Shown here in pieces: positions 30,001-33,000 of a stretch of DNA of 64,000 nucleotides. The stretch's first letter is position 1. Each line of letters opens with the position of its first letter. The DNA is from a virus, in the IMG/VR virus record IMGVR_UViG_2718218091_000001, one strand, 5' to 3'. Position numbers: made by a program.

Positions 30001-33000
30001 GATGACTGTGCGGGCATGGCCTTCACCCACGCAATCGGGGCAGTCGGGGTGTGGTGGGCGGTGGGGGTTGTACCCAATGCCGCCCTCTTGGTCGAAGTCG
30101 GCCGGGTCTTTGCCATCCTTGCGCCATTGCTCCACAGCTGCGTTCATTTCGCCCACGGTGCGCTGGCGCTTGAACCCTTCGCCCCAGCAGTGGCGGCAGC
30201 AGCCCTTGCGCACTTCCACAAGCTCGCGGGCGTCCGCAAAGGCCACCAGGGCTATCTCGGTCAGCACCCGGTCTGCGGTGATGCCTGTGCGCTCCTGCTG
30301 GGCCTTGCGTGCTATCGAAATTGCAGCCTGAACACTAACGTTTGCTAACAGCCTTGAGCCCTGCTCATTGGCTGTGTGCGCGCTGTATCCCGCCCGAATC
30401 GCGGCCTGGGTGGCGTTCAGGTCCACCATGTATTCATCCACAAACCGCTGCTGTTTCGGGGTCAAGCCCTTATCTGCATTGTCCGTGCTGCTATCAATTT
30501 TGATTGCCTTGGTGGGTGCGGGCTTTGGCTTGGGCGCTACAGGCTTCTTCTTCGCAGGCGCACCGATGCCCGCGGCACTCTTACGCGCAGCGGGCTTCTT
30601 CGCCGGGGGCTTCTTGGGGGGCGCCTTCCTGGGCGCGGGTGTTGATGCCATGGGCCCGGAGTGTTCCGGGCGCTGGGCGGGGCGTCTAACCCGATGGGGG
30701 GGTTACTGATCCGGCCAAGGTGCTATACCAGCCGCGATAGCAGCACAAGCAAGGGCCGTGCGCTTGTCTATGGGGTGATCGCCTGCCACCAGCTTGGCAA
30801 AGCCTGAGCGGGATATACCCAGAGCCTCAGCAGCCTTCTCGTATGTGTAGCCCATGGCCTGCTGCCATGCGCGGAGGTCGGCGGGGGTCATCTCATTACC
30901 AGTTGTCGGTGCCTGCGCGCTCGCGGGCAACAATTGCAGCCATGTGCTCTTGGGTCGCATGCCCAGACCACACATAGTCAGCAAAGCCAGGAACAGCGAT
31001 TTTCACGGCAGCAACGGTCTGGTCTGCTTTACGCAATGCTGAGCATGCAGGCATCAAACCATCGCCAGTCAGGCGAGCGCCGGAAAGATCATCTGCGGTG
31101 CGAATTTCCTTGGTGGTGACTTGGCCGTTTGTGTGCAGGATGCGAGCTGTGAATTCCATTTTCTTCTCCCACACCCGGAATCGAGTGCATGGGGTGTATT
31201 ATGCAGTGTAGTTGCTACACTGTCAACAACTAATTTAACAGCGCCAACTGCTTTGGCTCCACGTCCGTCGCCTGCACATTGTTGCGCAGGGCCTTGATCT
31301 CCCGGCGTGCTTCTTTCAGCTCGCGGGCCAGCTCGTGGCACAGCACCACGGCCCGGTTGGAGCTTTCGGCCTGGGCCAACTCGTGCAGGTGCCCGTAGAA
31401 CTTGCGCGCGATCGTGCGGGCCTCTGCGGGGGTCAACTCCAAATAGTCGCTCCCGACTTCCAGCTTCACCATGCCATCCGGCAGATCCGTGGTGCTGATG
31501 GGCCGCGTGGCCGGGAAGTGCTCCACCACCTCCAATTCCCCATTGCCGGCGCGGCGTAGTTGGTCTTTTTCGATCCAGCGCTCCACATGGTCGTCCACGA
31601 TGCCAGGCTTCAGGCCAGTCAGGTCAGCCAGGGCGCGGCGGTTGATGCGGCGCTCCGTGTTGCGCAATTCAAGGATGGTCTGCCAGATCAGATGGCCATT
31701 TTTAAAGCGATCGCGCTTTGCGTCGTCGGTGGCCAGCATGGCGCCTGGGGTCTGCGGTGTTTGCGTGGTCATTGGCGTTGGTCCTCCGGTATCATTGCGA
31801 TTGCTCAGGTCGCAAGATCGGGGAGGCCCGCTTCGGCGGGCTTTCTTTTTTCAGGGGCTGAACAGCCTCCGAACAGTCACTGCGAGCGCATCCACCTCGT
31901 CCATCTTCTTGATGGCCCACATGCGGCGCTGGCCGTGTAGGCCCATCAGCGCACCCTGGTGGCACGACTTGCATAGCGCAACGACCGTGAAGTGTTGGCC
32001 CTGCTTGATGTGATGCGCGTCGCTCGGGCCGGGCTGGTCGCAAACTGAGCACGGGAGTGCCTTCACCGCAGCGATGTGATATTGCTCACGCCCACTCATC
32101 GCCTTGGCATTCTTCGACCTCACAGCAAGTACCCCCTGGACTGCATGAAATCAATTGGGTCTTTCGCCGACTTGCGCACGTTGCAGGTCGGACACAAAAG
32201 CTGGATGTTGAGCGGCGAGTGGTCTCCGCCCCTTGCAATTGGCGTAATGTGGTCGACGTGGTACGCGTCCTTGATGGAGCGTCGGCAAACCACGCACATC
32301 CATTTCTGGCGCGTGCCGATTTTTTTCACCGTGCCAGGCGGTAGGCGGCCAATCTTCTTCCCGCTGCGGCGTTGACGAAATTCACGCACCTTTTCGGGGT
32401 TCTCAGCGCGGTATTTCCTAAGCCGCTCCTTCCCGCCCTCTGACCTCCACTTTTCGCGCTGCCTTTCCCGAACCGCCTCCCTGCCACCTTTCCAAGAAGG
32501 ATGCGCTGCGCCTTTTTTGTGGGCGGTGCCATTTATTGCGACCGATGCCTTTCTTGCCTCGGCTGCGCGCGCGAGGTTTCCTGGCGTTGTCAGATGGCCG
32601 GAAGCACAGCGAACACTGCAATACTTGCCATTCCCACTGTCCAGTTGGCTTTTCTTGGCAGTGAAAGATGCCCCGCATTGAATGCACACCCGAGTACGCA
32701 AAGCCCTAAGTTCTTCGGAGGCTCTATCGATCGCCGCGTCCTTGCAGGCTTGTCCGCAATAGATGTTGCGAAGCCTGCGGCCTTCCATAGCCCCACCACA
32801 GCCCTTGCATCGCTTGTCATTCATCACTGCACACCCCCGATGATTTCGCCCGTGTCCGGGTCAACCTGCATCCCCTCCCACTGCTGAAAGCTCGCGGGAA
32901 AAGTCACCCCCAGCTCCGTCGCGGCAAAGGCGCTCACGCGGTCGATCAGCTGGCTGTAGCCCTTCACGCCCAAGTCCTCGGTGCTCACGCGCACGCGGGT

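Follow-up and report, generated by a model that had tools for sequence, protein, structure and literature searches.

A candidate type I-C anti-CRISPR in an Aca6-like operon upstream of terS in a self-targeted prophage

Each family of anti-CRISPR-associated (Aca) proteins is accompanied by an inverted repeat in the core promoter of its operon, and the cognate protein represses that promoter (Shehreen et al, 2022, PMC9410906). The tested Aca6 homologue came from Comamonas terrigena and has its site, GCAC-N3-GTGC, between the -35 and -10 hexamers (PMC9410906). Operons that join the gene for AcrIF11, an ADP-ribosyltransferase, to an aca gene have the order promoter/operator, cargo, helix-turn-helix (HTH) gene, and AcrIC1–AcrIC11 (Leon et al, 2021, PMC7913775, with structures solved later) are small phage proteins encoded upstream of aca in self-targeting prophages of type I-C hosts. 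Here, we describe a cassette of this architecture in IMG/VR virus record IMGVR_UViG_2718218091_000001, a stretch of 64,000 nucleotides (nt) that we refer to as the window and that corresponds to positions 4,144,966–4,208,965 of a closed 4.57-Mb host chromosome. The cassette encodes an orphan protein of 87 amino acids (aa), P0001, followed by a 62-aa Aca6-like HTH protein, P0002, and its sequence and context suggest that it is probably an acr-aca operon, with P0001 as a candidate new anti-CRISPR against type I-C. The function proposed for P0001 draws on guilt by association and on self-targeting in two genomes.

Promoter, leader and predicted repressor of the cassette

The cassette spans positions 31226–30703 of the window (524 bp), lies on the minus strand throughout and coincides with a dip in GC content (52–58% vs 62–67% in the flanks). 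In the order of transcription, its features are:

31232–31230, minus strand: stop codon TAG of an upstream 180-aa gene, which ends 3 nt before the -35 hexamer
31221–31226, minus strand: -35 hexamer TTGACA, matching sigma-70 at 11 of 12 positions together with the -10 hexamer and a 17-nt spacer
31204–31222, strand-neutral: predicted operator of 19 bp, a perfect 8-3-8 inverted repeat CAGTGTAG-CAA-CTACACTG
31198–31203, minus strand: -10 hexamer CATAAT, after the 17-nt spacer
31171–31188, minus strand: conserved 5′ leader stem-loop GCACUCG-AUUC-CGGGUGU, the minimum-energy fold
31165–31170, minus strand: Shine-Dalgarno sequence GGGAGA of the cargo gene, 7 nt upstream of its ATG
30896–31159, minus strand: cargo gene of P0001, the 87-aa orphan protein and candidate type I-C anti-CRISPR
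30703–30891, minus strand: gene of P0002, the 62-aa Aca6-like HTH protein and predicted repressor

An original prediction for this DNA had proposed a near-consensus sigma-70 promoter with an 8-bp inverted repeat in its spacer, followed by an 87-aa open reading frame (ORF) and a 62-aa HTH gene just upstream of terS. Both proposals held: the promoter (TTGACA-17-CATAAT, minus strand) is the sole 11/12 match in the 14 kb around the site, and the gene order follows from the ORF coordinates and a Pfam HTH_31 match. P0002 starts 4 nt past the P0001 stop codon, the terS-like gene starts at 30651, 51 nt beyond the stop of the HTH gene, and terL and portal come next. Between the HTH gene and terS, no terminator-like site was found on the minus strand.

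The operator repeat consists of the spacer plus the last two bases of the -35 hexamer and occurs as a single copy in the window, even when 3 mismatches are allowed. The significance of an 8-bp repeat by itself was rejected, as three 8-3-8 repeats are observed in the window vs about two expected from shuffles. Since the repeat is not rare alone, what gives it weight is where it lies, inside the core promoter, and the fact that it is conserved and co-varies in related loci. We collected 66 such loci by scanning genomes and IMG/VR with an HTH profile and clustered the upstream gene for 62 of them. The layout that recurs, in about 70 related loci, is promoter, operator, 5′ leader hairpin, variable cargo and, last, the HTH gene; a -35 hexamer, a 17–19-bp inverted repeat and a -10 hexamer precede the cargo in each locus. 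A related repeat is found at the same position in seven loci (L028, L029, L031–L034 and L072). The closest HTH relatives (78–87% identity) have repeats CAGTGTAT-taa-ATACACTG, AGTGTAG-aaa-CTACACT or similar, and remoter HTH subtypes have AGTCTCA..TGAGACT, GACTAAA..TTTAGTC, ACTTAAT..ATTAAGT and others. Because the half-sites differ by HTH subtype, operator and HTH change together, as expected of a repressor and its site. This co-variation across loci bears out the idea of a promoter palindrome acting as operator, and the 19-bp repeat is predicted to be the binding site of a P0002 dimer.

P0002 is a small single-domain HTH protein (Pfam HTH_31, residues 6–50, 28.8 bits at a cut-off of 27) with more than 420 relatives at 90% clustering. 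The suggested search against Aca families led to Aca6: P0002 is 52% identical over its full length (63 columns, E 4e-18) to the HTH protein of an Achromobacter denitrificans locus (L007), which in turn is 54% identical (E 4e-17) to the Aca6 reference WP_035450933 from Alcanivorax. An Achromobacter denitrificans protein that is a near-twin of the L007 and L044 HTH proteins has been placed under Aca6 (Shehreen et al, 2022, PMC9410906). P0002 and Aca6 are both small single-domain HTH proteins encoded last in their operons, in Comamonadaceae and Alcaligenaceae; they have in common an N-terminal motif W(R/Q)xxMG(Y/W)(S/T), a C-terminal LACAA motif, an arm-N3-arm repeat between -35 and -10 and the association with AcrIF11. 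They differ in that P0002 does not have the 7–9-residue insertion (GxxxxTGKPV) after the recognition helix and in the recognition helix itself (SRSGFAKL in P0002, SLPTLQAW in Aca6). A comparison of the HTH profile with PDB sequences returned no solved Aca protein (Aca1, Aca2, Aca7, Aca10 or Aca11) at E<1, and the AcaFinder supplements hold no HTH protein matching P0002. We regard it as a well-grounded prediction that P0002 is an Aca6-like autorepressor acting on a promoter-embedded operator; that it would repress its own promoter is carried over from the Aca6 homologue in the literature.

The genes controlled by these promoters vary widely. The gene upstream of the HTH gene falls into about 36 clusters in the 62 loci and mostly overlaps the HTH gene by 4 bp; the distance from operator to HTH gene ranges from 227 to 1080 bp, corresponding to one to several cargo genes, and some operons hold two to five of them. 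At the locus studied here, the gene upstream of P0002 is not a known acr. In the family, the largest cargo cluster is AcrIF11, which stands directly upstream of the HTH gene in nine of the 62 loci (Achromobacter, Castellaniella and Alcaligenaceae) and matches PDB entries 8dwq (E 1.6e-49), an AcrIF11 structure (bioRxiv 10.1101/2024.08.26.609590), and 6kyf (“AcrF11”, E 3e-4); HTH homologues thus do neighbour known acr genes, as had been anticipated. The acrIF11-aca operons have the same architecture as our cassette and differ from it in that P0001 is unrelated to AcrIF11 and the host system is I-C, not I-F.

Exchange of cargo is apparent from two comparisons. A related phage (L029) shares the promoter and leader (88% over 31228–31172) as well as the segment that begins with the HTH gene and runs on to include terS and terL (81%), whereas the P0001 region is without similarity and holds other genes, the cargo having been swapped. 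In L049, an 84.5% similarity to the 180-aa gene ends exactly at its stop codon, beyond which the promoter, operator and cargo are different and the HTH gene is of the long form. An HTH homologue also occupies the same place before terS in Acidovorax phage AP1.

The leader stem-loop starts about 2 nt after a conserved AUG/ACG, which lies about 8 nt past the -10 hexamer and is likely the 5′ end of the transcript. Every related leader has a 6–9-bp stem-loop 1–3 nt after the conserved AUG/ACG, and RNAalifold applied to 19 distinct leaders gave the same seven pairs, all seven changed on both sides in a compensatory manner. Stem pairing was found in 84% of cells compared with 55% in shuffled data (0 of 500 shuffles as high) and 23–47% with the partner slid. 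Rfam has no family across the cassette. The hairpin had originally been drawn as ACACCC paired with GGGTGT; both words are present, but we discarded this pairing for the conserved stem GCACUCG/CGGGUGU, since it is not the minimum-energy fold and ACACCC is located before the likely start of transcription.

Aca2 reportedly controls the 5′ untranslated region of acrIF8-aca2 by RNA binding, and our cassette resembles the Aca2 system in having a conserved 5′ leader stem-loop in the acr-aca transcript. The proposal that the hairpin serves as an Aca2-like RNA operator was not supported, however: two loci (L069 and L070) have one leader in common, yet their operators and HTH variants differ. A role of the hairpin as RNA mimic of the operator was also rejected, the two sequences being unrelated. 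The combination of an identical leader with different operators and HTH variants favours a generic role over recognition by the HTH protein, and we infer that the hairpin may, for example, shield the 5′ end of the message.

The cargo protein and the type I-C systems of its hosts

P0001 matches nothing in Pfam, PHROGs, NCBIfam or PADLOC, and a profile of its family matches no PDB sequence. Seven close relatives (74–78% identity) were found among 5.8 billion clusters, and when 1.8 billion proteins were searched exhaustively, 19 representatives reached E<=1e-3. No homologue was found in GenBank phages, and among 401 genomes of the same family P0001 occurs only in the window's own genome. In the short homologues (72–87 aa), W64 and G66 are invariant, and L8, T10, L42, R43, D46, A50, G58, Y62, T69 and a C-terminal W are near-invariant. 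Several homologues have another residue in place of His9, and no catalytic motif is evident; we read P0001 as a binding protein. The AlphaFold2 model is a beta-beta-alpha-beta-beta-alpha fold (predicted local distance difference test, pLDDT, 80.7; predicted TM-score, pTM, 0.66), for which fold searches (Foldseek against PDB, VIA-align wide, BFVD and ESM Atlas) gave no convincing neighbour. Among natural structures, the T4 antitoxin Dmd scores highest (Z 4.6, root-mean-square deviation 2.5 over 56 residues), at a level below the guide value of the tool; the Foldseek probability to RB69 Dmd is 0.69. No toxin is among the fold matches of the model, which does not by itself argue against a toxin fold, and an Atlas feature search returned unnamed viral clusters only. 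Short motifs of P0001 and of a second cargo protein described below are absent from the supplements of Leon 2021 and Gussow 2020.

When P0001 homologues occur with Aca6-type operons, they invariably follow such a promoter as its first gene, and the operon always closes with an Aca6-like HTH gene. Members of the family are combined with the short HTH protein and a GTGTA operator here and in L072, with a long HTH protein and an AGTTTCA..TGAGACT operator in L069, L073 and L075–L077, and with a third HTH/operator variant in L070. Such reshuffling over three HTH/operator subtypes speaks against a cognate toxin–antitoxin pair and is what acr genes typically show. The homologues are also found at varying positions, namely before an integrase gene, after lysis genes and at a prophage end beside the host gene greA.

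The host chromosome encodes a type I-C system at 1.62 Mb with Cas3, Cas5d, Cas8c (Csd1), Cas7, Cas4, Cas1 and Cas2, each aligning end-to-end to its Pfam model; residues 31–696 of Cas3 align to solved type I-C Cas3 proteins (E ~1e-167). The array beside the cas operon, the only one in the genome, has 45 repeats of 36 nt and 44 spacers, and the 3′ end of the repeat in the sense of the CRISPR RNA (crRNA) is ATTGAAAC. The window holds the following targets of this array:

43127–43161, minus strand: protospacer of host spacer 23 (35 of 35 bases), inside a 64-aa early ORF (43088–43282, plus strand)
43162–43164, minus strand: protospacer adjacent motif (PAM) 5′-TTC-3′ (GAA on the plus strand), the PAM of type I-C, immediately 5′ of the protospacer when read as crRNA
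39997–40030, plus strand: degenerate protospacer of host spacer 19 (29 of 34 bases), preceded by TTC

Spacer 23 is flanked by consensus repeats. As the opposite flank of its target is also TTC, on the other strand, the PAM holds in either reading direction of the array. None of the remaining host spacers is matched over its full length elsewhere in the genome. The prophage is duplicated in tandem, the unit measuring about 66.33 kb (4,131,498–4,197,895 and 4,197,826–4,264,203, 99.98% identity), and the two copies overlap by about 70 bp at the junction (window 52861–52930, genome 4,197,826–4,197,895). This overlap indicates an attP-like site rebuilt between the copies; the tandem duplication could be an assembly artefact of a circular form. 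With the prophage in two copies, the target of spacer 23 is present twice, the second, identical protospacer lying in copy 2, outside the window. A self-target of this kind should kill a cell whose I-C system is active, which implies that the system is off or inhibited. The cassette is the only Aca6-like locus in the host genome, found once per prophage copy, and no further homologues of the cargo family were found there.

Two observations on the host system stand apart. The first 22 of the 37 bases of spacer 8 are identical in two related IMG/VR phages, L028 (2940–2961) and L029 (1760–1781), near their homologue of the 180-aa gene. In addition, an ORF of 306 aa that contains a Bro-N domain (E 7e-8) is placed between cas7 and cas4 (genome 1,622,361–1,623,281; L068:6361–7281, minus strand), an unusual arrangement with a possible effect on how the adaptation genes are expressed.

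A P0001 homologue is present in just one further assembled genome, a Giesbergeria metagenome-assembled genome (MAG), which also encodes Cas8c (E 7e-180) and has an array of 45 repeats of the same type as in the host with 44 spacers (C85:13850–17041). Five of these 44 spacers are 2, 2, 3, 5 and 6 mismatches away from the contig of the P0001 prophage (C87:29–51 kb), with the target flanks, in that order, TTT, TTT, TTC, CGC (no PAM) and TTC. The near-matches, two of them with TTT for TTC, look like a record of escape mutations. Type I-C was found in 46 of the 401 sampled genomes of the family; co-occurrence of P0001 and type I-C in two of two genomes, which are akin and of which one is a MAG, is taken as supporting evidence only.

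Several observations made on the P0001 family and on other cargoes are recorded here. P0137, a P0001 homologue of 159 aa, carries in frame, at its N terminus, a stretch similar to the beginning of Aca10-type HTH proteins; it may represent a remnant, or the ORF may have been called too long. The most distant homologues (P0143, in L085–L087) lie after an integrase gene and RHH_3 and before PAPS-reductase/DUF3440 and ParB_N genes, in contexts that hold no Aca6-type HTH gene. A 72–75-aa protein (GPWRLYTH...QRGM(D/E)IGALA) recurs as second cargo between P0001 homologues and the HTH gene and is the sole cargo in one locus:

L069, 5268–5487: second cargo, with a P0001 homologue
L073, 1576–1803: second cargo, with a P0001 homologue
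L076, 782–1000: second cargo, with a P0001 homologue
L077, 660–878: second cargo, with a P0001 homologue
L024, 2893–3117: sole cargo

The protein has no match in Pfam and is a candidate for another anti-CRISPR. Two Aca6-like HTH genes (1800–2024 and 2661–2867) occur among small genes before an integrase gene in L073 (1319–2867) and in L074, and look like two stacked cassettes. Many cargoes are small and strongly acidic (L054, L055 (5666–6001), L033, L061, L062, L065 and L051; one with DUF2525) and are possible DNA-mimic anti-defence proteins.

Proposed mechanism and alternative readings

The features of the cassette suggest the following course of events. On entry of the phage genome, the strong constitutive sigma-70 promoter would fire and give a transcript that would be stabilised by the conserved stem-loop at its start and that encodes first the 87-aa cargo and then the 62-aa Aca6-like HTH protein. 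As the HTH protein accumulates, its dimer would occupy the 19-bp repeat between -35 and -10 and shut the promoter, limiting read-through into terS and terL and keeping expression in the lysogen low. Read-through into late genes is reportedly the arrangement described for acr-aca loci. The cargo would most likely be a stoichiometric inhibitor of the host type I-C CRISPR-Cas system; as a best guess, it would attach to Cascade (Cas8c/Cas5/Cas7) and keep the complex from binding DNA. The phage could thereby infect a host with a perfect spacer against it, and the lysogen would survive. A further proposal, which we hold tentatively and rate somewhat short of an even chance, is twofold: that P0001 founds a new AcrIC family (about 20 clusters at 50% identity, phage-like contexts throughout and an unseen fold) and that Aca6-type operons share an undescribed 5′-terminal stem-loop, which acts post-transcriptionally, through translation or the stability of the message, and gives acr genes a second level of control that does not depend on the repressor.

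Several points weigh against an acr-aca operon directed at type I-C. Compared directly with the Aca6 reference, P0002 matches over 22 N-terminal residues only (E 3e-5), and with the relation being transitive, we read P0002 as a short, divergent branch of Aca6. A known acr adjoins only eight of 128 Aca6-like genes in the literature (PMC9410906), and the predicted P0002 operator has the core-promoter architecture of the published Aca6 site but a different sequence (GTGTAG-N3-CTACAC vs GCAC-N3-GTGC). Similarity of P0001 to a validated or listed Acr, in sequence or fold, was not found in the libraries searched, and its near-neutral charge makes it no obvious DNA mimic. The likeness to AcrIC1–AcrIC11 lies in a small phage protein encoded upstream of aca in a self-targeting prophage of an I-C host; P0001 differs in being a candidate only, with no similarity to solved proteins or the supplementary lists searched. 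The co-occurrence with type I-C comes from two genomes, and the array and prophage of the MAG could derive from different strains. Finally, the self-target could be tolerated through a silent or defective CRISPR system or through another prophage gene.

Among the alternatives, an Aca-regulated anti-defence cassette whose cargo inhibits a non-CRISPR defence (restriction, abortive infection or a toxin), with tolerance of the self-target coming from another gene or a silent cas operon, survives best, and we consider it unlikely. Mixed anti-defence genes are described for Aca-linked loci (Pinilla-Redondo et al, 2020), the distant homologue P0143 sits beside PAPS-reductase/DUF3440 and ParB_N genes instead of an HTH gene, and the best, weak fold neighbour of P0001 is the antitoxin Dmd, although at a Z score (4.6) under the level that the tool regards as meaningful. 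Against such a cargo stand the type I-C arrays aimed at the carrying prophage in both genomes of the P0001 family and the fact that the sole identified cargo of the HTH family is an anti-CRISPR.

It is quite improbable that the HTH protein is instead a regulator of the packaging operon that provides a repressible promoter for terS and terL, the small ORF being an unrelated moron with a role in exclusion or lysogenic conversion. The HTH gene does immediately precede terS in our cassette, as it does in L029 and in Acidovorax phage AP1, and no terminator separates the two genes in the window, but cassettes are also found before integrase genes, after lysis genes and at a prophage end beside host genes, and the operator sits in the cassette's own promoter.

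A toxin-first type II toxin–antitoxin system like HigB-HigA, with P0001 as toxin and the HTH protein as autorepressing antitoxin, would account for the small gene first, the HTH gene second and the autoregulatory palindromic operator, for weak matches of P0002 to HigA (TIGR02607, E 0.002, below cut-off) and to Xre-like antitoxin HTH domains and for the note in the literature that Aca6 models on HigA2 (PMC9410906), but is very improbable given that there is no cognate pairing (the HTH gene occurs with about 36 unrelated upstream clusters, P0001 with three HTH subtypes), that some operons have two to five cargo genes before the HTH gene, that the HTH match to residues 6–50 of 62 leaves no room for a toxin-binding extension and that one cargo family is the enzyme-type anti-CRISPR AcrIF11.

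Significance for type I-C systems and the Aca6-like family

Type I-C systems are compact and used for genome editing, so that new inhibitors would provide off-switches as well as probes of Cascade and Cas3 function. With P0001 as the probable anti-CRISPR of an acr-aca operon, the locus offers a clean natural test case, combining a closed genome, an apparently intact I-C system, a doubled PAM-flanked self-target and a single Aca-marked candidate. If the cargo is not an Acr, the case will show how far guilt by association holds for this Aca family. The combination of a short Aca6-like HTH protein, a co-varying operator and a leader hairpin marks about 36 mostly unexplored cargo families in phages of Burkholderiales, which can be mined for further anti-defence genes.

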